DNA of 60,116 nucleotides from an uncultured Ktedonobacteraceae bacterium (GTDB lineage: Bacteria; Chloroflexota; Ktedonobacteria; Ktedonobacterales; Ktedonobacteraceae): the NCBI GenBank assembly GCA_964250915.1, contig CAXUIS010000002.1, forward strand, positions 18,736 to 78,851. Reading direction: 5' to 3'. Positions 6,682-56,850 of this stretch are shown piece after piece. Under the pieces are notes generated by a model. That model was not told the origin of the DNA, searched no databases, and saw only the letters and a program-made list of their open reading frames with translations. Positions within the stretch are counted from its first letter, which is position 1; each line of letters opens with the position of its first letter. The translations under genes were made by a program, and so were the position numbers.

Positions 6682-6748
6682 CATACTACGGATATGATTG
6701 ACGATGGATATATCGTGTCCATCGTCAATCATATCCGTAGTATGTTAC
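6678..6748. terminator. Perfect 31-bp hairpin between convergent genes, overlapping both stop codons
   Basis: GTAACATACTACGGATATGATTGACGATGGA (6678-6708), 9-nt loop, exact complement at 6718-6748. TAA of the + gene is at 6679-6681; the stop of the - gene is at 6745-6747. No clear U-tract. Confidence 0.6.
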
Positions 6749-7773
6749 TTTGGAAATGCAAGACGACGATATTTTTCTCTGGACTCTAACCATGCTTCAT
6801 CGGAGAGACCCATTTTTTCACGCAATGTTTCTGGCGTCACTCCTGCTTTCAGTTGCTGCACAGCAAAGGTGTCGCGGAGCAACTGCAATGTGACGCGCTT
6901 CTTGATATTCGCTGCCTTCACAGCTTTTGCTAATATATAGTTCAAATTGCGGTCTGTACAGGCAAACACCTCATCGGTGAGATGATATTTCTGTTGGTAC
7001 GCGCGAAAAATCTGTGTGAACTCGGATGGCAGAGCAAGACGACGCTCCCGGTGCTGTTTATTTGTCGAGGCAGCAAAATGCACCGTTACCAGAGGGACAC
7101 GTTCGTCCGAGAGATCGACCTGATGCACTTTTAGCCCCATAACCTCTTCCTTTTTCAGACCGGCATGTAACACGAGATAGACAAGGCAGTGGCAACGCGG
7201 GTCTTCTTCAGAAACGGTCAGCAAACGTTGTATCTCGTCGGCAAACAATAATTCTGGCAATGGTGGTAGTGGACGCTCAAGCGTCAAACTCGCGGCTGGA
7301 TCCTCTTTTATCACCGATTCGCGATGTAGCCAGGAAAAGAAGTTTTTCAGGAACGTGACACGGCGCGCCATTGTCTTTGGGGCAGGTACCTGTCCCTTTG
7401 TCCCAAACTTGAGTTTCATGAGCCAATCAGTGAGTTGCTCTTTTGAGAGACGCCCAACTGGAGTGTCGTACCCTGTATAGTCACTGAACATCTTGAGGTC
7501 TGACAGGAAACATGTCACAGTATAGTTCGACTTTCCGCGCAACATCAATTCTTGCTGGTAGGGAATGGCACATGCAGCAAGACTCGATTGATCAGTGAGA
7601 GGATTTGTGCGTACCAACGGTGGAAATGGAGTTTCTAATGGGTCAGGAGGTTCTGCTATCACTGTTGGAGCACCGAAAAGATTGCTTTGTAGAACGGTGC
7701 TATCCTCGCTACGTGTTGGCTCTGCTGGCCTTGTTTGCTGAGCCTGATGCTCCTGTTGAATATCCTTCTGCAT
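6745..7773 (-). CDS. Tyrosine-recombinase (XerC/D, phage-integrase) fold protein with degenerate catalytic residues
   Basis: N-terminal SAM-like core-binding region and C-terminal box I/II aligned by eye to XerD. AGLKKEEV replaces GLRxxE, LQLLRDTFA replaces HxLRHxFA, MGLSD replaces LGHSD, and the terminal Tyr (EKY) is retained. AAGGAG SD before the ATG. 70-aa Pro/Gln-rich N-terminal extension. Confidence 0.7.
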   Translation of the reverse strand: MQKDIQQEHQAQQTRPAEPTRSEDSTVLQSNLFGAPTVIAEPPDPLETPFPPLVRTNPLTDQSSLAACAIPYQQELMLRGKSNYTVTCFLSDLKMFSDYTGYDTPVGRLSKEQLTDWLMKLKFGTKGQVPAPKTMARRVTFLKNFFSWLHRESVIKEDPAASLTLERPLPPLPELLFADEIQRLLTVSEEDPRCHCLVYLVLHAGLKKEEVMGLKVHQVDLSDERVPLVTVHFAASTNKQHRERRLALPSEFTQIFRAYQQKYHLTDEVFACTDRNLNYILAKAVKAANIKKRVTLQLLRDTFAVQQLKAGVTPETLREKMGLSDEAWLESREKYRRLAFPK

Positions 7774-7789
7774 ATCTTAAACGCTCTCC

Positions 7790-8050
7790 TTGAGAATAGA
7801 ATGTGTGGTCTGATATCTCCCTCATTTTTCATTATAGCAGAACAGGTCTAGTAGGTGTGACATCCACTCAATACCGTAGAACGATATGAGCTTCCTCGCC
7901 TCACGACAAGGCTTTCCTGCTTCGTTGAGACGTGCCTAGTCGGGCTTTCGCTCTCCCAGGTCTTACAGCCTCTCCACAGGCTGAAACGGCAAGTCCTGCC
8001 GCCAGCACGTTTTTTGCTGCATTGATATCTCGATCATGGAAGACGCCACA
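7790..8050 (-). ncRNA. Expected TnpB omega/reRNA region (3' end of tnpB plus right end); boundaries not determined
   Basis: Placed purely from established knowledge that IS200/IS605 TnpB guide RNAs derive from the tnpB 3' end plus the transposon right end. I could not fold or recognise the scaffold by eye. Confidence 0.3.
7831..7839 (-). promoter_or_regulatory. Candidate extended -10 (TGCTATAAT) for the recombinase-like gene
   Basis: Reverse complement of ATTATAGCA at 7831-7839 reads TGCTATAAT, about 58 nt upstream of the ATG at 7773. No good -35 found. Confidence 0.3.
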
Positions 8051-9130
8051 TTCGGGACAGGTCCATGAACGGATATCAAGCAGTAAGGAGTCGAGAATAT
8101 GCCCACACTCATTGCAGCGTTTGGAAGAGGGATACCACTTGTCTATCTTGACAAGGGTACGTCCGTACCAGGTGGCTTTATACTCCAACTGACGGACAAA
8201 CTCACTCCATCCCACGTCTTGTATGGCCTTAGCAAGGTTGTGGTTCTTGACCATATTCTTGACTTGGAGACTCTCGACACAGACGACTTGGTTTTCGCGT
8301 ATGATGGTTGTCGAAAGTTTGTGCTGATAGTCCCGTCTTCTATCAGCAATCTTCTTGTGGCACCGTGCAACTTTCAAACGGGCTTTGTCTTTATTCTTTG
8401 ACCCTTTGTTCTTTTTCGCATGACGACGTTGCAGTTTTGCCAGCTTCTTTTCGTCGTGAGCAAAGAACTTCGGATTGCCGTAGGTGTGTCCATCACTGGT
8501 GATCACCATGCTCTTGAGTCCTACATCAAGCCCGACCATCTTGTTGACAACAGGCAAAGGCTTGATCTCTTCCTCAACAAGGATGGAGACAAAGTAACGG
8601 TCTGCTTCATCTTTGGTAATCGTGATGGATGAAGGCTTGCATCCTTCGGGCAAGGGGCGGCTCCAGACAATGTCTAAAGGAGTAGACAGACGAGCAGGGG
8701 TTAAAGACGTGCCTTTGAGGGTAAAGGCCGTTCCCACATACGTAGCATGTTGTTGATGGCTCTTTTTCTTGAATGTGGGATACTGTGCATGTCCTTCAAA
8801 AAAGTTGAGCATTGCCCTATCTAGGTGTCGTAGGGATTGTTGGAGGGGAACACTGGCAACATCAGCAAGCCATTCATACGCTTCTTGCTGTTTGAGCAAA
8901 GTCAAACGTTGGGCAAGTCCTTCGTAAGAGAGACGCTCACCACGTTTGTAGTACGCGTCTGTCCGTTCTCGCAATGCCCAATTGTAGACAAAGCGACAAC
9001 ACCCGAAAGTACGGGCGAGGATATGCTGTTGTTCCTCGGTTGGATAAAACCGATATTTGTAGGCTTTTTGCTGTTTCGTGTTCACGTCTACAGGATACCA
9101 CATATCATGTAGAATATCAAGCATTTTCAC
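7901..9130 (-). CDS. tnpB: RNA-guided endonuclease TnpB (IS605 OrfB family)
   Basis: KAYKYRFYPT N-terminus, RuvC-I GLDVGLK, RuvC-II VVCVESL, zinc ribbon CNECG...CPECG, RuvC-III HDRDINAAKN. About 408 aa, like characterised TnpB. GTG at 9130 or ATG at 9124. Confidence 0.9.
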   Translation of the reverse strand: MKMLDILHDMWYPVDVNTKQQKAYKYRFYPTEEQQHILARTFGCCRFVYNWALRERTDAYYKRGERLSYEGLAQRLTLLKQQEAYEWLADVASVPLQQSLRHLDRAMLNFFEGHAQYPTFKKKSHQQHATYVGTAFTLKGTSLTPARLSTPLDIVWSRPLPEGCKPSSITITKDEADRYFVSILVEEEIKPLPVVNKMVGLDVGLKSMVITSDGHTYGNPKFFAHDEKKLAKLQRRHAKKNKGSKNKDKARLKVARCHKKIADRRRDYQHKLSTTIIRENQVVCVESLQVKNMVKNHNLAKAIQDVGWSEFVRQLEYKATWYGRTLVKIDKWYPSSKRCNECGHILDSLLLDIRSWTCPECGVFHDRDINAAKNVLAAGLAVSACGEAVRPGRAKARLGTSQRSRKALS

Positions 9131-13059: not shown

Positions 13060-15459
13060 TTATAGCTCATGAGTATGAGGATGTTCGTGAGAGTGATCGG
13101 GTAAATGCTGATGTGTATGACTATGCATTGTACCCGTGGTTGGAAGTTCTTCTGGTGTGTGCGTGTGCGTCCCTTCAAGATGGAAGGGATGGCTATGACC
13201 ATGCCAGAACTGTTCTGGATTATAATTAGCTACAAGCAAACTCTCGCCATGATGCCAGCGATCACGGAAGATGTCATAGTTCTTTTTGCTTTTCGTGCGG
13301 CGTTCCTCCTCGCTAAGACTATACCATTCACGGTGCGGATGCTTCTCGATGAGCATTTCCACCTCTGGAGTTGTCACTGCACGATAGCCCGCCGCCTTAA
13401 AAAAGAAGCTATAGAAAATGTCCATCAAACGGTAGAAACGGAATTTTTCGTCGATCCAACCTACTTCATGCAAGAGTTCTCGCCGGAAGGCTATAAGATA
13501 GCCCTCAATCGCATCGGCATCCTGTTCCGAAGATTCATGGAATTCACGCAAGTCCTCTGTAACCAAACCATAAGGACCTGCAATACCCACACGTGCATTA
13601 GTGAGTGCTGTAGCTAAGGGTGTCCAAATATCCCCTTTGACCTCGATAGAGGTATCCATAAGTATCACATAATGCCCTCTACTCACACGCATAGTTGCAT
13701 TACGACCCGCAGCAAAGCCCATATTATGATCTGCAAAAAGAACGTGTAGACCAATGGTTTGCCCCTCCTCACTGGTCAAATCCCCCTGACGAGCAAGTTG
13801 CTGAAGATATGGAAGTGTTTCATCAGTTGAACCATTGTCAATCACAACTATTTCTATGGTATGGCTTCCAGCATGACGACGAATACTTTCTATACAACGT
13901 GCTACATCGTCCTTACTATTATGTGCCAACAGATTCACCGAAAACTCGAAGAGGTCGGACAGATACGTGTTGTCTTGAGCATCGGAAGAGTGAGCAAGGA
14001 CAGGAAACTCTTCGTCCAGACGACGCGGTAAGACGAGCGAACCACGCTGAGTATCTCTCACAACATATCCCGTGTGGTTCAGTTGTTGGCGTATAGTATC
14101 GGCCTGCTGGTAGTCGTGCTGAAGACGCAATGCCTGGCGTGTCCGCACTTGAGTAGCAACAGGCGAGGGCACAGCAGCAAGATAGGTAGTTGGTTCGCTC
14201 AAACGTCGAGGTAAGTCACTCTGAAGATACGCTTTGAGACCAAAGCCAAGAATGCGGTCCATGTCAAAAAGGACGCGTAACTTTGTGACGGGTGTTTCTT
14301 GTGAACGCAACATAGCCCAGACAACAGCCATAGCCCGTGGCATATTCAAATCGTTCTCCACCTCGGCAAGAAATGCATCGCGCCACTGGCGTCCCTCGTC
14401 CTGTAGTGGCTTATCAGAAAAGACAGCGTTCTCGTCTGCTTGTGTGAGCAGATGATAGGCTAGATTTCTCAGCCGTTCCAGTGATGTTTGTGCAGCTTGT
14501 AGAGCGCGGAAGGTAAAATTGAGACGACTACGATAGAGTGCAGTTGTATAGAAGTAGCGCAGAGCCATTGGTTCAAAGCCACGCGAAGCGACTTCCGCAC
14601 GAGTATAAGCATTACCAGTAGACTTTGCCATTTTCTGACCATCAGCGAGAAGGTGCTGGGCGTGCAACCAATAGTTGACAAACTGTTCACCCGAAAAGCC
14701 TTCGCTTTGCGCGATTTCGTCTTCATGATGTGGGAAAATGTTGTCAACACCACCTGTATGCAGATCGAAATGCGTACCTAGATACTTTGTGGACATCGCA
14801 CTACATTCAATATGCCAACCGGGGAAGCCACGACCCCAGGGACTCTCCCACGCCATCTCGCGTCCAGATTCGGCTACCTTCCATAATGGAAAATCTTCCA
14901 CGTTATGTCGGTCAGCATCAACACCCTCGTGAACACCTGCCATCATATGTTCAAGTAGGTTGCCAGACAACTTACCATACTCAGGGAAGCGTTTGATATC
15001 AAAGTACACATTGCCATTGACTTCATAGGCAATACCCTTTGCCTCTAATATTGAAATAATCTCGATCATTTCAGGTACGTGTTGCGTAGCGCGTGGAAAG
15101 ATATGTGCAGGTAGGATATTTAATAACGCTTCGTCTTCATGAAACGCTTCTGTATAAAATTGGGCGATTTGAAGCGATGACTTGCCTTCTTTACGTGCCT
15201 GTGCCTCAACCTTATCTTCGCCCTCATCTACCACTTCCCGCCGCATATGCCCTACATCAGTGATATTTTTCACATGTAGGACCTCAATCCCCCGATACTC
15301 AAAGGCTCTTCGTATCCAGTCCGCCATCGTAAAGGTACGCAGATTGCCAATATGTATATAGCGATAGACGGTAGGGCCACAGGAATACATTTTGATTCGT
15401 CCATGCTCCATAGGAACAATCTCTTCTATCTCGCGTGTCAGGGTATTATAAATCCTCAT
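13060..15459 (-). CDS. cysS: Cysteine--tRNA ligase fused to a GT2 glycosyltransferase domain and a His-rich tail
   Basis: One open frame. The CysRS part has CGPTVY, HIGN, WHIECS, FPHHEDE and KMAKS, with a complete C-terminal domain ending about ...VVRDTQRGSLV. The GT-A/GT2 part has VIDNGSTDET and NMGFAAGRN. Tail: HSHTHQHLPDHSHEHPHTHEL. ATG at 15459 with GGAGG SD. Confidence 0.85.
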   Translation of the reverse strand: MRIYNTLTREIEEIVPMEHGRIKMYSCGPTVYRYIHIGNLRTFTMADWIRRAFEYRGIEVLHVKNITDVGHMRREVVDEGEDKVEAQARKEGKSSLQIAQFYTEAFHEDEALLNILPAHIFPRATQHVPEMIEIISILEAKGIAYEVNGNVYFDIKRFPEYGKLSGNLLEHMMAGVHEGVDADRHNVEDFPLWKVAESGREMAWESPWGRGFPGWHIECSAMSTKYLGTHFDLHTGGVDNIFPHHEDEIAQSEGFSGEQFVNYWLHAQHLLADGQKMAKSTGNAYTRAEVASRGFEPMALRYFYTTALYRSRLNFTFRALQAAQTSLERLRNLAYHLLTQADENAVFSDKPLQDEGRQWRDAFLAEVENDLNMPRAMAVVWAMLRSQETPVTKLRVLFDMDRILGFGLKAYLQSDLPRRLSEPTTYLAAVPSPVATQVRTRQALRLQHDYQQADTIRQQLNHTGYVVRDTQRGSLVLPRRLDEEFPVLAHSSDAQDNTYLSDLFEFSVNLLAHNSKDDVARCIESIRRHAGSHTIEIVVIDNGSTDETLPYLQQLARQGDLTSEEGQTIGLHVLFADHNMGFAAGRNATMRVSRGHYVILMDTSIEVKGDIWTPLATALTNARVGIAGPYGLVTEDLREFHESSEQDADAIEGYLIAFRRELLHEVGWIDEKFRFYRLMDIFYSFFFKAAGYRAVTTPEVEMLIEKHPHREWYSLSEEERRTKSKKNYDIFRDRWHHGESLLVANYNPEQFWHGHSHPFHLEGTHTHTPEELPTTGTMHSHTHQHLPDHSHEHPHTHEL

Positions 15460-15627
15460 AGGCCATACCTCCACCGGAAATATTTGCAAACTAGTATTAC
15501 TCTTCTTTAAGAGTCATGAGCAAACGGAAATGAGTAATATGAAAATGCGCAGGACAGGTTATGCAGATTAATAAATATTTCGTTTATCTGCATTATTGCG
15601 TCCTCATAATGGGTAATTTGCTAACGA

Positions 15628-47559: not shown

Positions 47560-48055
47560 CGCTCTGTAACAGAGAGCGTACTGTTTCTAGCAAAGTTTTT
47601 ACATGTTATAGTTGCCAAGCTCTTTATGCGGAGTTACACTGTAACTCTAACAGGTACCCTTTTGCCTATGCAACTGTATAGCACTAATAGGTAGCTCAAA
47701 ACCGTAGAGACACATATGCGTATAGCAAATTGAGTCTTCAGTATACGCGTGCTCATGCTGGAAGAAAACGTGCTCTGGCAAATTTCAGGAATGCTCAATA
47801 ATTTACTTGTACGGATAGAACACTTGCATCAAGACGCAACAGAACTCTATCAAGTGAAACTTGCTCTTCCGCGGGTACGTGAAGAGAAAAAAATACTAAG
47901 AAAGCGGAATGGAAGGTCTATGGCCTAAACTGCTATGATGAGATATTGCTAGCATAACTTGCCAATAGGTAGAAAGTTAAAATTTGAAGTCTAGGTCCTG
48001 GATATTTTGAAAGAGTAGGCCGCTGTAATAGTAAGAGGAAACGACATGAGCATAA

Positions 48056-51000
48056 CTACTCATTCTCTACCGCTCCCAGCGTGCGTAGCATAACTTTTTG
48101 TGCAGATGAAAGACCTGTCACGCCAGTAATGTTCATCTGCTCATACGGTCGCTCTCTACGGAGCGTTCGCACACACGTGCCTGAAGCTACATCCCATAGT
48201 TTGATTGTTCCATCGTAACTACCACTGGCAACAAGCGAGGCATCTGGACGAAAAGCAACCGAGTACACTCTCTTACTATGCTCATATCCTGCCCAGCGTT
48301 GTTGTTGCGTATCCAGTTCCCAGAGACGTACACTCTGATCATCGCCGCCACTCACAAGCGACTTCCCATCGACACTAAACGCTACCGACCATATCCAACT
48401 CATATGGCCTCTCAGAACGCTCACACAACGGCCAGTACTCACTTCCCACAAGCGAATTGTGCGATCATCGCTACTACTAACAAGAAAATGCCCATCGGGA
48501 CTAAAGGCAACTGAACGGACTCTACCTCTATGGTCATATAACAAACGCAAACTGGAATCTTCGTGAAGTTGCCAAAGACGCACTATTTTGTCTTCACCAC
48601 CACAAGCAATTGTCTTTCCATCAGGACTAAAAGCAACCGACCAGATGCGGCTACAATCCTTTTGTAGAATGCCCAGACAAAGGCCAGTGCTGACTTGCCA
48701 AAGACGTACTGTCTGATCGTCACTACCACTCACAAGCAGTGTTCCATCAGGACTAAAGGCGATAGAACGGACCCAGTTGGTATGTCCACCCAACGTTCGC
48801 AAGCAATATCCTGTTTTGACATCCCACAATCGAATCGTTTGATCATCGCTCCCACTTGCAAGTATTGCTCCTGTCGGACTAAACGCGACTGAATAAATCC
48901 ATGTGCTATGTCCCTGCAATATTTTTAGGCATTGTCCCGTCTCAACTTGCCAGAGACGTACTGTTCTGTCATCACTACCACTGATCAGCGTGTTCCCATC
49001 AGGGCTAAAAGCAATAGAGCGTATGCGGCTACTATGACCCTGAATAGTCTTCACGCATTGTCCGTCATCGGTATTCCACATACGAATACTTTGATCGTCA
49101 CTACCACTAACCAACATGTTACTCGTGGGATAAAATGCTACCGACCAGACGCGGTTAGTATGTCCGCGCAGTGTTGTGAGCGTTTCTCCACTATGCACAT
49201 CCCACAATCGAATCGTTTGATCATCGCTCCCACTCGCAAGAAGGTTTCCGTCAGGGCTAAATGTTACCGACCAGATACGGCTGGTATGCCCTCGTAGCAG
49301 TTGAATCGGTGTATCCTTCTCTCTATCCCAGAGATAGACGATTTGATCATCACCACTACTCGCAAGATATTTTCCGTCTGCACTAAAGGCAACAGAACAG
49401 ATAGCGTCTTTGTGTCCCAGGAATGTCTTTACACATACACCCTCTTGCACATTCCACAGTTTCATTGCACGGTCATGACTACCACTTACGACAATATCAT
49501 TCTCGCGACCAAAGGCCACAGACCAAACGCGGCTTGTATGTCCCTCTAATGTGTGAAGGCATTCTGCTGTTCTTATATCCCACACGCGCACTGTATGATC
49601 GTCTCCGCCGCTTGCAGCGAGTGTACCATTTGGAGTGAATGCAACCGAACGTACTCTATTCGTGTGCCCATAAAAAGTTTTCAGACACTGTGTTGTTTTC
49701 ACATCCCATAAACGAATACTTTGATCATCACTTCCACTTAGCACGGTACTACCATCAGGACTAAAAGCCACCGAGCGTACCCAGTCAGTATGTCCCTGAC
49801 ATATACCAAGTGGAGCACCACTCTGCACGTCCCACAATCGAACCTCACCATTTGCTGTTCCCGCCGCCAATTGTGTACCATCAGGACTGAGTGCAACGGA
49901 GAGTACACTCCCGAAGGTGTCACTAAAAACTGTTTGTTTCAGCTCAGAGTACGAGAAATTCACTTTATGCAAATTGACATCCTGCAAATAGCTGTTCCAG
50001 ACCGCGAGATGAGAAAAATCATAGCCTGCGAGATCAACCTTTAGCTGTACCAACAGGTTGAGCAAGTTTCCTGCCGCATATTCTGGTGTATCGGGACGTG
50101 TTTCTTTGAGGATTGCCAACATGCTTTTAAGCTTTGCCTCACACTCAACCTTTCCAAGCGTGCTAAGCAGTTGGTGAATGATCGCTTCAAGAAAGAGCCG
50201 TGTCTGATTGTTCCTAATATGATCCTTTGCCTCTGCCCTGATGAGCGTATGGCTTAATAAGAGCGAAAATTGCTCATGTACAATTTCCTCACAGACACGA
50301 GCAACAAATTCTTCGGTCACGTACTCCATAATCACAGGTTGCAAGGTAAAGTATGTACCACTACTATTTTCAATCATGGAACGCTTACGTAGTGAGTCCA
50401 GCGCATTCAGAAGGTCTCGTTTGGGAACTGGACGTACAATCTTTTTTAGCACATCATTAAAGGAAATAGGCTCACAGGCTAAAGCGAACCAGTAAATAAT
50501 TTCTCTCTCTTGGGCTGATAAGCGATGAAATTGCGTATCAATTAGAGCGTAAATATCGCCAACAACTGTTCCTCTTTCAGCCAAAAATTCCGCTATTTCA
50601 CCGCCGAAGAGTTCTTTAATAGGTGCTGCAACAAGTTTCAACGCGAGTGGATTACCACCGTAGGTTATAGTCAGTTCGTCGCAGACCTTATCCGAGCCAA
50701 GCAGATCTTTTCCACGTAATAGTCGTCGTCCCTCTTCCAGCCCTACTCCAGTCAGAGGTAAAACCTTTACAGAGTTTCCCTCTGTATGTACCACTTCTAA
50801 AGGAAGTTCGCGACTCGTAAGCAGAAGACAGCTTTGATGTGTACCTTCTCCTATAGTAGTTATGAGTTTACCGTAATTTTCGTAACTCGCACGATATTGC
50901 CCCACATTCTGGCTGCTCTCCAGAATTGTCTCAACATTGTCGAGTATGAGAAGGCAGCGATACTTTTGTAGATACTCCACTAGCTGCTTTATTTGTTCAT

Positions 51001-51646
51001 CGGTATCTTCAGATGAATCTACTACCGTCTGCGCTTGACCAGAAAGAAATTGAAGGCATTCTCTAAGTACCTCTTCAAGTAAGGGAGCATTTTGTAAGGT
51101 GTACCAGAAAACATAGGTGAATTGTTCTTTTACGCGCTCGGTTATGATACTGGCGAGCGTTGTTTTGCCAATACCCCCTATTCCCAGGAGTGTGACAACA
51201 TGACAATGCTCGGATTGTATCCAATGCCCCAATATTGCCAGTTCTTGTTCACGCCCATAAAAGACCTCTTTCTGTGGAGCATCCTTCAGATAATAACGTG
51301 TAGTTGGCGGAGAACTCTGTTCCTGTGTTTTCGTTATTTCTGTACTTGATATATGTACTGGTAAAGCTGAGTGACGACGACCAGGTATGTAGGGAGGAAT
51401 GCCTTCTTGTACCCGCATTAATACTCCTGGCTCTAGTCCCAGTTGTTGCTCATATGCCTGTATAAGCTCTAGCGATGGATTGCCATAACCATTCTCTACC
51501 GTCGATAAACGGCTTTTGGTATACCCTATCGCCTCCGACATATCCGTTAACCTGAAACCTTTTTCAATACGTGCGAGACGCATTCTCGCTCCTATTGAGT
51601 GCTGGTTATTGTTCTCTAGCGAAACTATTTTTTCTTTCCGACCCAT
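48056..51646 (-). CDS. STAND NTPase: XRE-type HTH + NB-ARC/NACHT-like ATPase + 14 WD40 repeats
   Basis: HTH (IGARMRLARIEKGFRLTDMSEAIGYTKSRLSTVENG), Walker A GIGGIGKTTLA, Walker B CLLILDNVE, helical arm, then 14 units of GH..V.SVAFSPDG...SGSDDQTIRLWD (two 7-blade propellers). GGAGGG SD. Confidence 0.9.
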   Translation of the reverse strand: MGRKEKIVSLENNNQHSIGARMRLARIEKGFRLTDMSEAIGYTKSRLSTVENGYGNPSLELIQAYEQQLGLEPGVLMRVQEGIPPYIPGRRHSALPVHISSTEITKTQEQSSPPTTRYYLKDAPQKEVFYGREQELAILGHWIQSEHCHVVTLLGIGGIGKTTLASIITERVKEQFTYVFWYTLQNAPLLEEVLRECLQFLSGQAQTVVDSSEDTDEQIKQLVEYLQKYRCLLILDNVETILESSQNVGQYRASYENYGKLITTIGEGTHQSCLLLTSRELPLEVVHTEGNSVKVLPLTGVGLEEGRRLLRGKDLLGSDKVCDELTITYGGNPLALKLVAAPIKELFGGEIAEFLAERGTVVGDIYALIDTQFHRLSAQEREIIYWFALACEPISFNDVLKKIVRPVPKRDLLNALDSLRKRSMIENSSGTYFTLQPVIMEYVTEEFVARVCEEIVHEQFSLLLSHTLIRAEAKDHIRNNQTRLFLEAIIHQLLSTLGKVECEAKLKSMLAILKETRPDTPEYAAGNLLNLLVQLKVDLAGYDFSHLAVWNSYLQDVNLHKVNFSYSELKQTVFSDTFGSVLSVALSPDGTQLAAGTANGEVRLWDVQSGAPLGICQGHTDWVRSVAFSPDGSTVLSGSDDQSIRLWDVKTTQCLKTFYGHTNRVRSVAFTPNGTLAASGGDDHTVRVWDIRTAECLHTLEGHTSRVWSVAFGRENDIVVSGSHDRAMKLWNVQEGVCVKTFLGHKDAICSVAFSADGKYLASSGDDQIVYLWDREKDTPIQLLRGHTSRIWSVTFSPDGNLLASGSDDQTIRLWDVHSGETLTTLRGHTNRVWSVAFYPTSNMLVSGSDDQSIRMWNTDDGQCVKTIQGHSSRIRSIAFSPDGNTLISGSDDRTVRLWQVETGQCLKILQGHSTWIYSVAFSPTGAILASGSDDQTIRLWDVKTGYCLRTLGGHTNWVRSIAFSPDGTLLVSGSDDQTVRLWQVSTGLCLGILQKDCSRIWSVAFSPDGKTIACGGEDKIVRLWQLHEDSSLRLLYDHRGRVRSVAFSPDGHFLVSSSDDRTIRLWEVSTGRCVSVLRGHMSWIWSVAFSVDGKSLVSGGDDQSVRLWELDTQQQRWAGYEHSKRVYSVAFRPDASLVASGSYDGTIKLWDVASGTCVRTLRRERPYEQMNITGVTGLSSAQKVMLRTLGAVENE

Positions 51647-51729
51647 AGCGTTCCCTCCAGTTATACGTAGTATAAAACAAAACGCCTAAGATTTCCAGAC
51701 ACACTTGTAAAACAAAACAATCCATGTTA

Positions 51730-51775
51730 TATTGTTGTTATCAGAGAACAAAATAGTTTTCCAATAACAACAATA
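51730..51775. promoter_or_regulatory. 12-bp inverted repeat in the divergent STAND / sigma-like intergenic region
   Basis: TATTGTTGTTAT (51730-51741), N22, ATAACAACAATA (51764-51775). A candidate operator for the HTH of the STAND protein. Confidence 0.3.
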
Positions 51776-51848
51776 GTAGGATAAGTACAACGAGGCGAGA
51801 TAAAAGACCAAGAGGGCAGTAACCCTAAGCAAAGCAGCGGAGAGAACT

Positions 51849-52499
51849 ATGCAACAATCTTCTTTATCCACTTCTTTTTCGCAGACGTGTGATCTGGACA
51901 CAAACGAATTGCTCGAAGAGTATGACCTCTACATCTGTTCTCAGGCACGAAACTATGTCAATCGTAAACGTAGTATGCTTCACCCAGACACACTGGATAT
52001 GGAGATAGATGATCTCGCGCAACAAACACGTATTAAAATCTGGCAAGGGCAACAGAAGACAACTATCTCCAATCCGAAAGCTTATATTAGGCGTGTTGTG
52101 CATAATGAGTCTGTAACGATGATACGTCAGTCAAAGCCAACCACTTCTTTACCTATGGACGAAGAAGGGGAACTTTACTCATGTGAGGCACTGTTCCAAT
52201 CGACAGCAGTACAGGACCCGTTACGTGAGATCGAGCAACAAGAGGCAGAGCAATTCTATAGACACGAAGCTGTATATGCCATCTCTACTCTGCCTACTCG
52301 TCAAAGGCAAGCGATGCTTTGTGCGCTTAAAGACAAAGTTGATGATCTACTCGCATGGGTAACTATATGCAAAATCTATAATATGGATATGGATGTTGTA
52401 GAGTGGCCGGAAGAAGGGCAAGCGTTACAAAGTATGCGTTCTTCGGCGTCAGCCGCCAGAAAAAAACTCCGTCCAATGCTAGACACCGTTGTTTCTTGA
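51849..52499 (+). CDS. Divergent sigma-70/ECF-like protein (region 2 and region 4 remnants)
   Basis: DDLAQQTRIKIWQ...AYIRRVVHNESVTMIRQ resembles region 2. LPTRQRQAMLCAL resembles the start of region 4, but an insertion follows. GGAGAG SD. Confidence 0.5.
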   Translation: MQQSSLSTSFSQTCDLDTNELLEEYDLYICSQARNYVNRKRSMLHPDTLDMEIDDLAQQTRIKIWQGQQKTTISNPKAYIRRVVHNESVTMIRQSKPTTSLPMDEEGELYSCEALFQSTAVQDPLREIEQQEAEQFYRHEAVYAISTLPTRQRQAMLCALKDKVDDLLAWVTICKIYNMDMDVVEWPEEGQALQSMRSSASAARKKLRPMLDTVVS

Positions 52500-52566
52500 C
52501 TTTCCCCATGAGAGATGATAATCTTGGCCTATTACTCAATAAAGTCATCAGTAAGGCAGCATTTGT

Positions 52567-53904
52567 ATGAAAAGTAGTGGTTACACACTGACAGCAGATA
52601 GTCGGCATACGTCAGTGCTTCTCAAACAAGACCTACAAGTCCTTTTTTCAGAGGCTTCAATGCAGCAAAAACAAGCATTGTTACAGCGTCTAGCACCGAC
52701 GTTCGGTCCTGTTCTGGAACAGGCATTCATGAGGTTTCTAGCAAACGAAGAACAACTGCAGCCCATCGATGAGACAGCATTGATAGCACTTTTCAATAAG
52801 TGCATCGATCAGCACACGCAGGTCGATGCACTTATTGAGGTACTGCATGCTCTGGCACCGGGAAATGGACGAATTGGTTTCAAGCAAGTCAATATGTTAG
52901 CTGATCACCTACGACAGCATGTTGACCGATTTCTGCGACAAGGTAATCATCAATTACAAGACCTTCTTCCGCACGATCATGTCTTCGGAAGTGGTGGAGA
53001 TTTCTGCAAAACTATTCACGCGAGTACTGCCGCCGCAATTATCGTAGCACCGCTCTTACAAATATGTAAAACTGGAACAACAAATGTCACTTCCTATCAT
53101 GGGAGTGCTCAGGTAATGAGAGAATTCGGCTATACCACGCATAATTTGAGTATCGAACAAATCAACGACGAACTTCTTCACTATGGATTTGCATTTGTCC
53201 CTCTTTCCGCGCTTGACTTTCCTTATTCTGATGCCTTGAAAGCGGCAAGAGGGCAACTGTGGTATCAAGCGAAAAGCCTTCTTGAAGAAAAGTGTGCTAT
53301 AGGAACCTCTGGCTGGCAAGATGCAGTACGTAATACAAGAATACCTTTAGACATCTTTAAGATCGTATCACCGAACGCTCAGGTACTTCACCCTCTTCAT
53401 CATTCTACTGGTGTATGCCACATCGACATGATGCCCTATGTCCTTTCGCTTTACCTTCATTTGAATAGCACAGGTATTATCGTTCATAACTACGACACTA
53501 TTGATGAACTGGCGAATGCATCCAGTGATCCTACTCCTAACACTCCCAACAACCTCATTGTTCAGATAGAAGCTGATACCATTCGTATCACAGAATGTTC
53601 ACCTGAAGATTTAGGCTTTGCGCGGGCCGAACTCAACGATATCCAGGAAGTGGAAGATTTGGTTGCTACGAATGAAGACTTTTGGCGCATCATTTCAGGA
53701 GTAGAAACAGGACCGAAGCGAGATTTTCTCGTTGCTAACGCGGCTTTGTTGCTTGTTGCAGGTCACAAAATTCCTACATCTCAGGATGAAGAGCTGATAG
53801 AACAGATAAGAAGTGCTATCTCGGTTGTGGAAGAACTCATTGACTCGCATAAGGTCGGAGAAAATTTTCAACAACTGCTTGGAGTACACAATCACTTAGC
53901 ATAA
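52567..53904 (+). CDS. TrpD-fold (glycosyl transferase family 3 / nucleoside phosphorylase II) protein with altered active-site motifs
   Basis: GSGGDFCKTIHASTAAAIIVAPLLQICKTGTTNVTSYHGSAQVMREFGY aligns with TrpD GTGGD..NISTAAA..VAKHGNRS.SS.SGSADVLEALG. Later LDIFKIVSPNAQ aligns with TIFNLLGPLTNP. Confidence 0.6.
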   Translation: MKSSGYTLTADSRHTSVLLKQDLQVLFSEASMQQKQALLQRLAPTFGPVLEQAFMRFLANEEQLQPIDETALIALFNKCIDQHTQVDALIEVLHALAPGNGRIGFKQVNMLADHLRQHVDRFLRQGNHQLQDLLPHDHVFGSGGDFCKTIHASTAAAIIVAPLLQICKTGTTNVTSYHGSAQVMREFGYTTHNLSIEQINDELLHYGFAFVPLSALDFPYSDALKAARGQLWYQAKSLLEEKCAIGTSGWQDAVRNTRIPLDIFKIVSPNAQVLHPLHHSTGVCHIDMMPYVLSLYLHLNSTGIIVHNYDTIDELANASSDPTPNTPNNLIVQIEADTIRITECSPEDLGFARAELNDIQEVEDLVATNEDFWRIISGVETGPKRDFLVANAALLLVAGHKIPTSQDEELIEQIRSAISVVEELIDSHKVGENFQQLLGVHNHLA

Positions 53905-54018
53905 CGAGTGAGAAATGAAGAACAGAGATTCCGACCTAGCAGTAAATTGACTTCACTGTCTATCCGTTTGTATACTTATATAAAAGAGATTCAGCCACAA
54001 TACAAAGGATAAACGGTT

Positions 54019-55473
54019 ATGAGTAGAGTGCAACAACCTGAGAGCGATCAGGTTGGGTCTGTTGAAATGCATGGCATCGACGCTATTGATCAGCAGGAAC
54101 GTCATGGGCAGCCATTTGAATTGTTTTGGGTCTGGTTTGCCAGTAATATCAGCATTCTGGGTGTCGTCTATGGCGCGAGCTACCTAACAGGGAACGGCCT
54201 GAACCTGTGGCAGAGCTTAGTGGTCGGGTTAATTGCAACGGCGGTATCATTTCTTTTCGTTGGCCTTCTAAGCATCCCTGGCGTCTGGGGTGGTGCACCT
54301 ATGTTGACACTTTCGCGGGCTGTTTTCGGAACACGCGGAAATATTGGTCCGACACTGGTGAGTTGGATTAGTCTGGTTGGCTGGGAAACTATTCTAGTTA
54401 TCGCTTCGACAGAAGCATTGCTTGAACTTTTGCAAGTTTTGCACATCCAAACAAGTCCTGTCTGGACAGTAGTGAGTATTCTTGTCCTGTCGGCGGCAGT
54501 GGTGGCTTGTGGCTATTGGGGACATGCAACACTCGTCTGGCTACAGCGTGCCGCGACATGGGTATTTGGCATCCTGACGATTATCATTATCGCCTTCATT
54601 ATCCCTCAGACTAATTGGCAAAAGCTTTTCAATCAGCCTGCTGCCTCCTGGAATACAGGCGTGATAACAGCCTTTGTCATCATCATGGCGGCAACCGGAA
54701 TCGGCTGGATCAATTCTGGCGCGGATTACGCTCGCTACCTGCCACACAGGAGTTCTGGGCGCACCATCACTTTCTGGACTGTGCTAGGTGGAACCTTACC
54801 TCTCTACCTCTTAATGATTGTTGGTGTCCTGCTTGCTTCCTTCAAGGCTGATACCTTGACAGCGACCGACTCATTCGCTCCTCTTCGGGAAGCACTTCCG
54901 TCCTGGCTGGCTATTCCTTATCTACTGACGGCTATCGGTGGTCTACTAGCTGGTGCCGCACTCGATATTTATTCATCGGGTCTCAATCTGCTAGCTCTTG
55001 GTATCGGCATCAAACGTCAGTACGCGGTACTCATCGACGGTGTCCTGATGATCATTGGCTCCATCTATGTTTTGTTGATTCGCAATGACTTCCAAGGTGC
55101 GCTCACTAGCTTCTTGCTATTACTAGCCGACGGCCTGACTGTCTGGGCCGCGATATTCCTGGTCGATATGATCTGGCGTCGTGGCTATGACACAAAGAGC
55201 TTGTATGTATTGGGTAGCACAAGTGCTTACTATTATAACGGCGGCTTCAACATTCCTGCCTGTATTGCTTGGGTAGTCGGCGTGGTTGTGGGCCTACTCT
55301 TCACTACATCTAGCTTCTTTAATGGACCACTCGCTAAAGGAATTTTTGCGAGCACTAGCTTAGGATATCTCTTAGGTGGTGCAGTAAGCATCATCCTCTA
55401 CCTTGTGTTGAGGCCAATCTTCAAGACTAAGAAGGTGGTTAATGTTGAAGAGAAACCCTCTGTAGAGGTCTAA
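54019..55473 (+). CDS. NCS1 family (purine-cytosine / nucleobase-type) permease
   Basis: 12 predicted TM helices. The N-terminus ERHGQPFELFWVWFASNISILGVVYG is typical of cytosine/allantoin/thiamine-type NCS1 carriers. Confidence 0.7.
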   Translation: MSRVQQPESDQVGSVEMHGIDAIDQQERHGQPFELFWVWFASNISILGVVYGASYLTGNGLNLWQSLVVGLIATAVSFLFVGLLSIPGVWGGAPMLTLSRAVFGTRGNIGPTLVSWISLVGWETILVIASTEALLELLQVLHIQTSPVWTVVSILVLSAAVVACGYWGHATLVWLQRAATWVFGILTIIIIAFIIPQTNWQKLFNQPAASWNTGVITAFVIIMAATGIGWINSGADYARYLPHRSSGRTITFWTVLGGTLPLYLLMIVGVLLASFKADTLTATDSFAPLREALPSWLAIPYLLTAIGGLLAGAALDIYSSGLNLLALGIGIKRQYAVLIDGVLMIIGSIYVLLIRNDFQGALTSFLLLLADGLTVWAAIFLVDMIWRRGYDTKSLYVLGSTSAYYYNGGFNIPACIAWVVGVVVGLLFTTSSFFNGPLAKGIFASTSLGYLLGGAVSIILYLVLRPIFKTKKVVNVEEKPSVEV

Positions 55474-55562
55474 TCGAAGAGTATTCAATTCATTGGCAAG
55501 CAGATGAGCAAGGAGCAGAAATCGTGGTCGCAGACCGTTCACATGGAAGTGATAGTATCTAT

Positions 55563-56129
55563 ATGACTGTTGCACAATATTTGGCCTTAGATGAAGCTAC
55601 CGACGCCAAGTATGAATACGATAATGGCTATGTCTACATGCTGCGTCCGCCTTCTTCCGTTTATGATGAGCACACTATTCTCGACTTAGCGGGTGGAAGC
55701 AATGCACATGCAGCTTTGTGCTTACGCATAGGCTCCCTGCTTGACCAAGCTCTTCCCGATGGACCATGCATAGCGTTCACAAGCGATGCTCGTATGCAGA
55801 TTGCCGAGCGGCAGTATTACTACCCTGATATCACCGTAGCCTGTGGTGAAGGACCAGGAACAAAGCTAACTAATCCTATCGTAGTAATTGAGGTCCTCTC
55901 TCCGGCTACTGAGAAACGTGACCGAGGCGCAAAATTCAAAGTATATAAAACGCTACCAACGGTACAGGAATATGTGCTGGTCGGCAGTGAATACCAAGTG
56001 GTGGAAGTATACCGACGAGAAGGCAGTTTCTGGCGTCAGAACCGCTATCAATCGGGCGATCAGATTGAACTCAGAAGTATCAGTGTCAGTTTCTCCTTTG
56101 ATGCACTCTATCGCCGCATCCCAATGTAG
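55563..56129 (+). CDS. Uma2 family (DUF820) PD-(D/E)xK endonuclease-fold protein
   Basis: EYDNGYVYM, YYPDITVA and VIEVLSPAT motifs typical of Uma2. Confidence 0.7.
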   Translation: MTVAQYLALDEATDAKYEYDNGYVYMLRPPSSVYDEHTILDLAGGSNAHAALCLRIGSLLDQALPDGPCIAFTSDARMQIAERQYYYPDITVACGEGPGTKLTNPIVVIEVLSPATEKRDRGAKFKVYKTLPTVQEYVLVGSEYQVVEVYRREGSFWRQNRYQSGDQIELRSISVSFSFDALYRRIPM

Positions 56130-56140
56130 TTCTTCTAGTA

Positions 56141-56698
56141 TTAGGGCAATGTATCACGATGAAGCTTGAAGAAAAAAGGTTGCTCCATCCCTTTAAGGTC
56201 CATCACCCCTAACAAGGTGTCGGAATCGATGAGACGAAATGTGTCGTAGATTGGTAGATTGTCGTAAATCATCGAGGCACTTACTTTCCCCCGATATTCT
56301 ACCATACGCACACGTGCTTTGGCCTTCCGGGTCTGCAACACAAAACGTACCGCAAGCAATACCCGTCGCAATAGCTTGATGCGTGGAATGGGCAATTTCA
56401 GTGCAAGCGAGAATGGGAGACGTTTAGGATCGAGCGCAAAAAGCTGACCATGACTATCGGAAAACAATAAGGGATGCACGTGGTCGCGGTCAAGAAACTC
56501 TTTCCCATACCAACCGAACGTCTCTAACAACCCATCCAATGGATGATGAGTCGAGATTTCAGTACCATGCCACCTGCCAATCATAGTGTCGATATTCACA
56601 ATAGGAAGTGCATCACACAACTCAAGTGCTTCTTGCATACTCATACGGTTTTTGTTTGCATGCTCTCGAAGCAATGCTATGTACTCAGTGTCTGGCAT
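56141..56698 (-). CDS. GXWXG/DUF4334 domain protein
   Basis: IGRWHGTEI (GXWXG) followed by a DUF4334-like C-terminal half. GAGGAG SD. Confidence 0.7.
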   Translation of the reverse strand: MPDTEYIALLREHANKNRMSMQEALELCDALPIVNIDTMIGRWHGTEISTHHPLDGLLETFGWYGKEFLDRDHVHPLLFSDSHGQLFALDPKRLPFSLALKLPIPRIKLLRRVLLAVRFVLQTRKAKARVRMVEYRGKVSASMIYDNLPIYDTFRLIDSDTLLGVMDLKGMEQPFFFKLHRDTLP

Positions 56699-56850
56699 AT
56701 ATTCTCCTCTAGTAGCGAGACACGATCACCTCTAAAAATACTAAATCGGCTCACTGCCTTATTTTAACACATCGCCATTCTGTGAAAATGTGATACGATA
56801 CGAAGAGATGAAAGTTAAACGAAAATGAGTAACAGAGTAAACTTTCTCGC

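Follow-up and report, generated by a model that had tools for sequence, protein, structure and literature searches.

We found that a gene for a 1196-residue STAND protein (signal transduction ATPase with numerous domains), a divergently transcribed sigma-like gene and the TrpD-like gene that follows it form a conserved accessory three-gene module of Ktedonobacteraceae. The module was identified in a 60,116-nucleotide stretch of DNA from an uncultured Ktedonobacteraceae bacterium (assembly GCA_964250915.1, contig CAXUIS010000002.1, positions 18,736 to 78,851), hereafter the window, which is part of a 5.77-Mb draft genome of 518 contigs that is 89.9% complete. In Ktedonobacteria, every genome that carries the TrpD-like gene also carries this triad, in which the STAND gene points away from the sigma-like gene, itself followed by the TrpD-like gene (12 of 12 genomes, the window included). 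A preliminary description of this DNA had allowed that homologues might show no such synteny, and we observe that it is kept throughout. We tentatively favour a transcription cascade in which the STAND protein, through its helix-turn-helix (HTH) domain, would act on the putative promoter P1 of the sigma-like gene, and the sigma-like protein would act on a second putative promoter, P2, of the TrpD-like gene, whose product would act on a 5-phosphoribosyl compound. The genes of the triad and the domains of the STAND protein are as follows.

48056..51646, reverse strand: STAND gene, 1196 aa, ATG start, reading frame open; XRE-type HTH, NB-ARC nucleoside triphosphatase (NTPase), 14 WD40 repeats and a conserved C-terminal tail
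51425..51580, reverse strand: XRE/Cro-type HTH, residues 23-74 (HTH_3, E 2.1e-9), preceded by the conserved N-terminal arm MGRKEK
49937..51271, reverse strand: NB-ARC NTPase with helical and winged-helix part, residues 126-570 (NB-ARC Pfam match, motifs, PDB profile matches)
48188..49951, reverse strand: 14 WD40 repeats, residues 566-1153, presumed double-propeller sensor (PF00400, repeat register)
48059..48151, reverse strand: conserved C-terminal tail, residues 1166-1196 (identity to orthologues of other genera)
51849..52499, forward strand: sigma-like gene, 216 aa, putative divergent two-domain sigma factor of the extracytoplasmic function (ECF) type (Sigma70_r2, AlphaFold 2 and Foldseek)
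52567..53904, forward strand: TrpD-like gene, 445 aa, with an altered acceptor site (PF00591, AlphaFold 2, Foldseek, motifs)

The triad, its STAND protein and its chromosomal site

When 60 relatives were examined, the TrpD-like gene was present in six, all of the same family, and in none of the 24 genomes from other families of the order. The triad arrangement is kept in all six, and the flanking genes are unrelated in the three genomes of other genera and in G011. A scan of species representatives returned 11 loci, five of them new (a Ktedonobacteraceae metagenome-assembled genome (MAG), three Ktedonobacter species and Thermosporothrix) and all with the triad; the related loci come from Ktedonobacter racemifer, K. 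robiniae, Ktedonobacter sp. SOSP1-85, Ktedonospora formicarum, Thermosporothrix hazakensis and Ktedonobacterales/Ktedonobacteraceae MAGs. The STAND orthologues in 11 other genomes share 55-95% identity with the protein of the window, and between genera the proteins of the triad are kept at 55-60% identity. STAND orthologues of full length, 57-94% identical over residues 1-570, are present in all six relatives with the TrpD-like gene and in no others, the next best match being at 46%, and the presence or absence of the two genes coincides in 60 of 60 relatives, a tally in which G032 counts as one genome, as it does in the 69-place tally of sigma-like genes given below.

Additionally, 11 metagenome contigs carry a TrpD-like gene. 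Five have the full triad, one has the sigma-like and TrpD-like genes at the contig end (L115), one is without flanks and four show other contexts. L109, L110 and L111 are additional triads, and L108 and L112 appear to duplicate G018 and Thermosporothrix, with identical open reading frame (ORF) coordinates and identities. In the phylum-wide sample the TrpD-like gene was found in one of 400 other Chloroflexota and in none of 372 genomes outside the family; inside the genus it is patchy (3/12).

Next, we examined the STAND protein. Pfam detects 14 WD40 stretches over the whole protein (PF00400, E 4.1e-173) and, with residues 1-570 alone, HTH_3 (PF01381) at residues 23-74 with 37.7 bits against a cut-off of 23 (E 2.1e-9) and NB-ARC (PF00931) at residues 138-262 with 47.2 bits against a cut-off of 23.5 (E 2.3e-12), which confirms the HTH-NB-ARC-WD40x14 architecture first described, with a DNA-binding domain, an NTPase and a repeat sensor in one protein. 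Each of the 14 WD40 units is exactly 42 residues long, with ends running from 607 to 1153 and a mean pairwise identity of 45%, a number of repeats that would fit two seven-bladed propellers; Tandem Repeats Finder gave no rows for the WD40 region, that is, no DNA-level tandem repeat. The motifs GIGGIGKT, LLILDNxE, TSRE (R279) and GGNPLAL, which we take to be Walker A, Walker B, the sensor-1 arginine and the GxP (GLPL-like) motif, are invariant or nearly so across 13 orthologues plus paralogues, and within LLILDNxE the residues D236, N237 and E239 are invariant, the second acidic Walker B position being N. The MGRKEK arm and the recognition helix GYTKSRLSxVENG are kept among the orthologues, and the C-terminal tail is 64-87% identical to that of other-genus orthologues, a level at least as high as that of any other domain.

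By profile, the closest solved relatives of the HTH are SinR, HipB, P22 C2 and the 434 repressor, and those of the NTPase are PH0952, an archaeal STAND with a tetratricopeptide repeat (TPR) sensor, plant resistance proteins of the coiled-coil nucleotide-binding leucine-rich-repeat (CNL) class, and AfsR. At least five STAND paralogues with a comparable size and NB-ARC core are encoded in the host genome, and as many as 10 in relatives; in the 60 relatives most paralogue matches to residues 1-570 start only near residue 120. Of the orphan-paralogue alternative that was considered at the outset, it is correct that the protein is one of at least five similar paralogues in its genome, but it is no orphan.

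Upon comparison with the sister species G008, the triad falls into a segment with clear limits, which also includes a permease gene.

47575..56739, unstranded: accessory segment with the triad, the NCS1 permease gene, a Uma2 gene and a GXWXG/DUF4334 gene (comparison with G008:C40)
54019..55473, forward strand: NCS1-family permease, 484 aa, lineage-specific passenger (Transp_cyt_pur, E 2.6e-49)

The flanks are collinear with G008:C40 at 87% and 82% identity, and homology ends at 47574 and resumes at 56740. At the same site G008 has 3.0 kb instead of 9.2 kb, encoding aminotransferase-like and glycine-oxidase-like proteins, and because it carries this different cassette between collinear flanks, we consider the triad to lie in a replaceable segment. 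The NCS1 permease gene follows the TrpD-like gene in just two of the 11 other genomes, which are sister genomes, it has a promoter-like site of its own (53947-53976, 10/12 in the consensus scan), and it is outside the conserved triad unit. From the group at 51849-55473 previously proposed as the target, the sigma-like and TrpD-like genes are thus conserved and the permease gene is not, and the idea of a self-contained sensor-regulator-effector locus survives the synteny comparison with the permease dropped and a sigma-like step added.

The segment further contains a Uma2-family (putative restriction-endonuclease-like) gene at 55524-56129 and the GXWXG/DUF4334 gene at 56141-56698; the Uma2 gene is missing at the equivalent place in G002. 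In other loci an AhpC/TSA peroxiredoxin gene stands just after the TrpD-like gene, mostly convergent to it (L013:8861-9346, L018:10349-10876, L021:10852-11454, L024:10394-10864), and this neighbour, seen in at least four genera-level lineages, may mark the ancestral position of the triad.

The divergent intergenic region and the sigma-like family

The STAND and sigma-like genes share an intergenic region of 202 bp (51647-51848). The candidate regulatory elements of the module lie in this region and before the TrpD-like gene.

51669..51697, reverse strand: promoter-like site of the STAND gene, TGGAAA-17-TATACT (consensus scan 9/12; presumed function)
51705..51733, forward strand: P1, promoter-like site of the sigma-like gene, TTGTAA-17-TATATT with TG before the -10 (consensus scan 9/12; presumed function)
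51730-51775, unstranded: inverted repeat, candidate HTH operator overlapping the P1 -10 (perfect arms, shuffles, within-genus conservation)
52496..52524, forward strand: P2 element between the sigma-like and TrpD-like genes, TTGACT, 12 nt and GATGATAA (-10-like TAATCT) (cross-genus conservation)

The inverted repeat has perfect 12-nt arms, TATTGTTGTTAT at 51730-51741 and ATAACAACAATA at 51764-51775, which extend to 20 nt at 85% complementarity. When the 202 bp were shuffled 2000 times with dinucleotides preserved, perfect arms grew to 11 at most, seen twice, and an arm of 12 was never reached (0/2000). Within the genus the arms are perfect over 20 nt in G005 and match at 19/20 in G002, and in G011 the palindrome shows a compensatory double change, with G>T in one arm and C>A in the other, so that the 12-bp inverted repeat reported earlier is borne out by both the shuffles and its conservation. 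The palindrome begins within the -10 hexamer of P1, whose TTG-N17-TAT arrangement is visible across seven orthologous regions, and the -10 word TATACT or TATAAT of the STAND promoter-like site is present at the equivalent place in the orthologous intergenic regions read. We also considered the palindrome as an RNA hairpin, which is less likely because its left arm overlaps the -10 and would mostly escape transcription.

P2 lies between the stop codon of the sigma-like gene and the start of the TrpD-like gene. Its word TTGAC[AT]...GATGATA occurs at the same place in G002, G005, G018, L018, L109, L111 and L115, and with different spacing in L013, L021 and L022 (Ktedonospora, Ktedonobacter). A regulon search of the own genome with the P2 pattern gave four matches, the other three of which look intragenic. 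From position and conservation we infer that the palindrome with P1 would constitute an operator-bearing promoter and P2 a second promoter.

The sigma-like protein has a marginal match to Sigma70_r2 (PF04542; 25.4 bits against a cut-off of 24, residues 51-96), and its paralogue on contig C149, at 23.3 bits, is under the cut-off. The AlphaFold 2 model (predicted local distance difference test score, pLDDT, of 79.6) has two helical domains, the top Foldseek rows are all ECF sigma factors aligned over about 200 columns, and the region-4 part is presumably longer than a typical ECF sigma-4. The Joint Genome Institute label on its relatives is 'sigma24 family', and those with a name all come from Ktedonobacteria or Chloroflexi. 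With a family profile we found 69 places in 31 of 61 genomes, with 30 of the 36 same-family genomes represented and none of the 24 neighbouring-family genomes.

Flanks were then taken for the best sigma-like places, G032 being left out, which gave 57 sigma-like genes, 12 of them from triads. For 47 of the 57, a gene encoding at least 250 aa is transcribed divergently within 1.6 kb, and by BLASTP 29 of these 47 neighbours are STAND proteins (26 HTH-NB-ARC proteins of at least 500 aa with at least 30% identity, and three weak matches). The other divergent partners include four RelA/SpoT-TGS-ACT proteins with a C-terminal STAND NTPase, six MerR-type proteins (mostly with GAF) and two DnaJ-WD40 proteins, along with the single cases of an HTH_3 protein, a GAF protein, a periplasmic-binding protein and an M20-like protein, and two proteins without a Pfam match. 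STAND and sigma-like identities co-vary (Spearman rho 0.31 over 10 cluster representatives, a value reached or exceeded in 20 of 2000 permutations), and in a maximum-likelihood tree the 12 sigma-like proteins of the triads form one clade (96/84).

A k-mer search across 50 non-redundant regions upstream of sigma-like genes found clade-specific words only and no family-wide motif. Beside the sigma-like genes of one clade, the direct repeat A[AT]TGTCC occurs twice at a distance of about 11 nt, often followed by GCGGTTTTCA. The partner is a STAND protein in L090, L093, L096, L097, L102 and L095 and a periplasmic-binding protein in L098, and the repeat is also seen in L069; because it is present whatever the partner type, some cis-elements track the sigma-like gene and not its partner.

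Several further members of the family were observed. L073, L083, L084 and L091 (in G030, G014, G030 and G013, respectively) encode proteins of about 1100-1160 aa with HD/RelA_SpoT/TGS/ACT domains and a C-terminal nSTAND1/AAA_16 domain, divergent from the sigma-like gene; each looks like a protein of the nucleotide-binding leucine-rich-repeat (NLR) type with a (p)ppGpp-type output. P0137 and P0141, both of 379 aa, share 41% identity over 89% of the sigma-like protein and have extra Pfam region-4/GerE-type matches, and may represent a fused or longer form of the family. In the paralogue module on contig C149 of the own genome and in its two orthologues (L032:7270-7716, L066:5509-5925, L067:6779-7198), a same-strand ORF of about 140 aa precedes the sigma-like gene, for which no match was found in Pfam or PADLOC.

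The TrpD-like enzyme, related cargo and the role of the module

The TrpD-like protein matches Glycos_transf_3 (PF00591) with an E-value of 1.5e-14, and on TIGR01245 it scores 102.8 bits, which does not reach the equivalog cut-off of 199. Its AlphaFold 2 model (pLDDT 93.2) returns only anthranilate phosphoribosyltransferases (AnPRT) among the top Foldseek rows, the best being 4owo_A (E 3.5e-14, TM 0.80 on target). Compared with the Mycobacterium tuberculosis enzyme, GTGGD is changed to GSGGD and KHGN to KTGT, and the metal D-E pair is D313-E314; GSGGD and D313-E314 are invariant in 36 of 36 family members. In an alignment read by eye, the stretch that corresponds to the arginines of TrpD, which we take to be anthranilate-site residues, reads H-H. 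Because KHGN is replaced by KTGT, the substrate is probably other than anthranilate. The protein is about 100 aa longer than canonical TrpD, and the own genome has a canonical trpD and another PF00591 gene at other places.

Within a collection of 5.8 billion proteins, the family comprises 53 clusters at 42-92% identity, and a gap in bit score divides it from canonical TrpD (at least 310 bits versus at most 67 bits). PF02885 was undetected in 53 of 53 close family members and is present in every canonical TrpD match. YbiB, a protein that binds nucleic acid, is missing among the PDB profile matches of the TrpD-like protein at E <=0.01. Among named organisms, the family is represented in Ktedonobacteria, Sorangium cellulosum, Scytonema, Mastigocladopsis, Nostoc, Dolichospermum and Fortiea.

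Upon closer examination of the four non-triad metagenome contexts (L107, L113, L114 and L116), DUF5919 was found to adjoin the TrpD-like gene in three of the four contigs with flanks, in TIR-fused form, in XRE HTH-fused form and as a fragment. In L107 the TrpD-like gene is followed by a TIR-DUF5919 gene (L107:2626-3681). In L114 an HTH-DUF5919 gene (L114:542-1390) precedes it, the C-terminal part of whose product is homologous to the DUF5919 region of L107 (E 3e-14) and whose N-terminal 98 residues are colinear with the HTH of the STAND protein (34% identity, E 3e-12); no inverted repeats were found upstream of this gene. In L113 the TrpD-like gene is split, and there is a DUF5919 fragment (L113:2914-3228) next to chpX; the context of L116 is uninformative. 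The own genome, at its 89.9% completeness, has no DUF5919 match, and in the literature searched we found no paper that mentions DUF5919 and none that links TrpD to phage defence.

The gene that follows the sigma-like gene differs between modules, and for this reason the possibility that the TrpD-like protein is an anti-sigma factor was set aside. In other STAND-paired modules this cargo is a PNP_UDP_1 protein (407-423 aa) in three same-genus genomes, TIR-nSTAND1 once, and RecQ; further STAND-paired modules have no same-strand cargo, yet in two cases a convergent receiver-TCAD9 gene. The purine nucleoside phosphorylase (PNP) proteins of L090, L093 and L096, which occupy the slot of the TrpD-like gene, match in PADLOC the PN-superfamily effector model of the cyclic-oligonucleotide-based antiphage signalling system (CBASS) at 1e-16 to 1e-19 and the candidate system PDC-M60C at about 1e-21; the two housekeeping PNPs of the own genome have no PADLOC match. 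PNP domains of that clade are ATP-cleaving effectors in CBASS, Avs and Detocs, according to one preprint (10.1101/2023.01.24.525353), and PNPase and TIR figure, in two other publications, as effectors of NTP-dependent conflict systems in multicellular bacteria (PMC7159879, PMC8195603). The RecQ cargo (L025; PADLOC DpdF, 762 bits) was given zero weight as defence evidence, because RecQ-like helicases are expected to match this model and in L027 RecQ is also found close to a STAND gene, there with no sigma-like gene. Among other cargo, L095:6716-8347 and L104:6709-8343, in STAND-paired modules of two genera, encode receiver/TCAD9 ('ternary complex associated domain 9')/APH-like proteins of about 543 aa convergent to the sigma-like gene, and L098:6805-9300 encodes a family-B DNA polymerase with an exonuclease/RNase H-like domain after the sigma-like gene, the divergent partner being periplasmic-binding-protein-like.

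We infer each functional step of the cascade from the observed architecture, synteny, co-occurrence, cis-elements, folds and motif states. The WD40 propellers would bind a trigger, and nucleotide-dependent oligomerisation, as expected from the family, would gather the HTH domains. These would occupy or vacate the palindrome on the P1 -10, as its position and conservation suggest, and the sigma-like gene would thereby be switched. The sigma-like protein would then steer RNA polymerase to P2, upstream of the TrpD-like gene. The TrpD-like enzyme, with its 5-phosphoribosyl/diphosphate and metal motifs kept and its anthranilate-site residues lost, would act on a nucleotide or on phosphoribosyl pyrophosphate (PRPP), either as the end effector or as a signal maker. 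A conflict or stress response appears to be the most likely role, and it is likelier than housekeeping metabolism because sister modules carry defence-type PNP and TIR cargo and because the TrpD-like gene has TIR-, HTH- and membrane-DUF5919 partners elsewhere.

Several observations weigh against this cascade and its assignment to conflict. The sigma assignment of the 216-aa protein appears marginal, as TIGR02937 gives 33.9 bits against a cut-off of 42.9, Pfam region 4 is not matched and the best Foldseek E-value is 3.9e-3, above 1e-3. That an HTH protein regulates the sigma-like gene is not a general rule, because the family also partners STAND proteins and sensors without a detected HTH. Nor is the family defence-specific, because MerR-GAF, DnaJ-WD40 and other modules carry ordinary-looking cargo; ordinary-looking genes follow in the MerR-GAF-partnered modules, the ordinary genes after other sigma-like genes encode an M20 peptidase, a PBP and an ABC transporter, and the sigma-like proteins of the PNP modules fall in the other deep clade of the family tree. 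Outside the genus the palindrome persists only as short half-site words, and the word statistics are optimistic because the words were picked after the sequences had been viewed: ATTGTT/AACAAT has 16 occurrences against 2.3 expected in eight non-redundant orthologous regions, and TGTTCT/AGAACA has 13 against 1.8 in the triad regions, five against 0.19 upstream of the HTH gene of L114, and two in total in ten paralogue regions.

As regards defence in particular, the suggestion that the STAND protein resembles Avs-type immune sensors received no support from PADLOC, which found no Avs, NACHT or other named defence family in it and matched generic models only (for the repeats HEAT-ARM_XIII, for the HTH HTH_VI, RmrA and capH); it matched neither the sigma-like nor the TrpD-like protein at all. 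Variability is no higher in the WD40 sensor than in the NTPase (56-72% versus 51-56% identity to other genera), and the WD40 repeats lack DNA-level homogenisation, in contrast to arms-race sensors. Genes of amino-acid and peptide metabolism make up the flanks, and the cassette that G008 has instead is also metabolic, so that the triad has metabolic surroundings with no recognisable defence island. Finally, a plasmid search with a cyanobacterial TrpD-like query (tblastn) gave no match, and a comparison of viral contigs with the family alignment gave 23 pattern matches, none of which was confirmed.

The same parts could also represent a novel layout of NLR-like immunity in bacteria, which we regard as doubtful though conceivable: a STAND sensor without a killing domain would, via its HTH and an ECF-type sigma factor, switch on a separate nucleotide-targeting enzyme, and the TrpD fold would be a class of immune effector or signal synthase not recognised before. 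As part of that layout, the enzyme would be wired in cyanobacteria and other phyla to DUF5919 receptors with TIR, membrane or HTH outputs.

It is unlikely, in our assessment, that the STAND protein is instead a metabolic regulator, that is, a MalT/AfsR-like activator or repressor of a salvage or specialised-metabolism operon in which the TrpD-like protein is a phosphoribosyltransferase, the NCS1 protein imports the base and the sigma-like protein amplifies the response. The permease, of nucleobase type, would suit such an operon where it follows the TrpD-like gene, here and in the two sister genomes, but it is absent from nine of the 11 other triads and has its own promoter-like site. The enzyme retains PRPP-type and metal motifs, yet the genome already has a canonical trpD and a second PF00591 gene, and a gene found in three of 12 genomes of the genus is dispensable. 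The metabolic flanks and G008 cassette, the conserved and not diversifying WD40 sensor, the M20 peptidase, PBP and ABC transporter genes that other sigma-like genes precede, and the lack of a PADLOC defence match all agree with metabolism; against them, the same slot in sister modules holds defence-type PNP and TIR-STAND, and the TrpD-like gene is linked elsewhere to TIR-DUF5919.

Likewise unlikely is a wiring through the sigma-like protein, in which it would be the regulator with the STAND gene and cargo as its regulon, or in which the STAND protein would bind it directly in an anti-sigma- or activator-like manner, the HTH being secondary and autoregulatory. Here the co-divergence of the STAND and sigma-like proteins is as expected, no anti-sigma gene is seen in the triad, the divergent partners are large sensors of several kinds, of which the four RelA/SpoT-TGS-ACT-STAND and two DnaJ-WD40 proteins have no Pfam DNA-binding domain, and the A[AT]TGTCC repeat accompanies one sigma-like clade with any partner. 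The palindrome of the triad, however, sits on the -10 of the sigma-like promoter, a classic position for an XRE-type repressor or activator, and L114 links the same type of HTH and the TGTTCT words to the TrpD-like gene in a contig without a sigma-like gene. Finally, the highly improbable view that the STAND gene is just one of many WD40-STAND paralogues with neighbours by descent only, for which speak the at least five comparable paralogues in the genome, the up to 10 in relatives and a gene order common to kin, is close to refuted by synteny, as the triad is kept at 55-60% protein identity between genera while the flanks change, the STAND orthologue and the TrpD-like gene co-occur in 60/60 relatives and the intergenic elements are conserved.

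HTH-fused bacterial STAND proteins exist generally in the STAND classification literature, and the present protein has an architecture that is known as a class. Filamentous bacteria commonly encode STAND/NLR proteins with DNA-binding heads, which are listed as possible transcription-output immune sensors; to our knowledge, none of them has a defined target. Comparative genomics narrows the presumed target here to a palindrome-bearing region of about 200 bp, one private sigma-like factor and a single enzyme gene, so that the question can be addressed directly, either in a reporter host or in the cultured strains Ktedonobacter racemifer and Thermosporothrix hazakensis. In the literature searched, we found no account of the conserved triad, the STAND/sigma-like module family or the TrpD-like family with its partners, and no paper that brings ECF sigma factors, WD40 and Ktedonobacter together. 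The constant arrangement of the triad points to a signalling cassette of three genes that is so far undescribed and may be a defence device. Furthermore, the TrpD-fold family is sharply separated, with about 50 sequence clusters spread over Ktedonobacteria, Sorangium and filamentous cyanobacteria, and its STAND, TIR and DUF5919 partners suggest a new nucleotide-based chemistry. The sensor/sigma-like pairing recurs in the Ktedonobacteria, a little-studied, actinomycete-like lineage, and the systematic pairing of a Ktedonobacteria-specific sigma-like family with large sensors is possibly a general signalling design rule of the lineage.

Elsewhere in the window, an 809-aa ORF on the reverse strand (13060-15489) combines a class-I cysteinyl-tRNA-synthetase catalytic domain with a family-2 glycosyltransferase domain, and at 6745-9130, also on the reverse strand and about 40 kb from the STAND gene, a phage-integrase-family gene stands beside an IS605 OrfB/TnpB-type gene.

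Comparison with known systems

The STAND protein shares with AfsR of Streptomyces (SARP-NB-ARC-TPR, SARP being the Streptomyces antibiotic regulatory protein domain) and MalT of E. coli the combination of a P-loop STAND NTPase, a DNA-binding domain and a repeat sensor, and AfsR is matched by its N-terminal profile (8k60_I, E 6.9e-6). In the AfsR and MalT families, ligand- and nucleotide-dependent oligomerisation controls promoter occupancy. Unlike these regulators, the present protein has an N-terminal XRE/Cro HTH and not a SARP or LuxR domain, its sensor consists of 14 WD40 repeats and not of TPR or SUPR-type repeats, and its presumed target is a sigma-like gene, which would give a two-step cascade.

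The order of an N-terminal output, a STAND NTPase and a C-terminal repeat sensor is also that of Avs/AVAST and bNACHT proteins, in which PNP and TIR are typical outputs. Among bacterial NACHT proteins, transcription-regulatory and DNA-binding domains occur as N-terminal 'adaptor' outputs, as stated in a preprint (10.1101/2022.07.19.500537). In contrast to these systems, the NTPase here is of the NB-ARC and not the NACHT clade, PADLOC matches no named system, the sensor is not hypervariable, and the putative effector enzyme is not fused but encoded by a separate gene, which would be reached through transcription.

The sigma-like protein resembles ECF (group 4) sigma factors in its 216-aa two-domain size and in a region-2 match just above the Pfam cut-off, and the top structural neighbours of its model are sigmaH, sigmaE, EcfG-type RpoE, SigW, CnrH, sigmaL and AlgU. 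It differs from them in falling under the TIGR02937 cut-off and in having no Pfam region-4 match. Some ECF groups are under transcriptional regulation and have no anti-sigma factor, as described in a review (PMC8999054).

The TrpD-like protein agrees with TrpD (PF00591/PF02885, TIGR01245) in its whole fold, in GSGGD for GTGGD and in the metal D-E pair, and departs from it in KTGT for KHGN, in H-H at the arginine stretch, in about 100 extra residues and in the undetected PF02885. As to the TrpD2/YbiB branch, YbiB is absent from the PDB profile matches at E <=0.01. PNP effectors of the Cap17/DtcC type are comparable in that N-glycosidic bonds of ribose phosphates are formed or cleaved by PNP as well as by TrpD-fold enzymes, but PNP cargo belongs to the paralogous modules and not to this locus, and the TrpD fold is unrelated to the PNP fold. 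In CBASS/Thoeris-type signalling, an enzyme gene stands beside a gene for a protein that joins a ligand-binding part to a variable effector, and the DUF5919 genes that adjoin the TrpD-like gene in three of the four non-triad contigs with flanks may or may not represent such a pairing.

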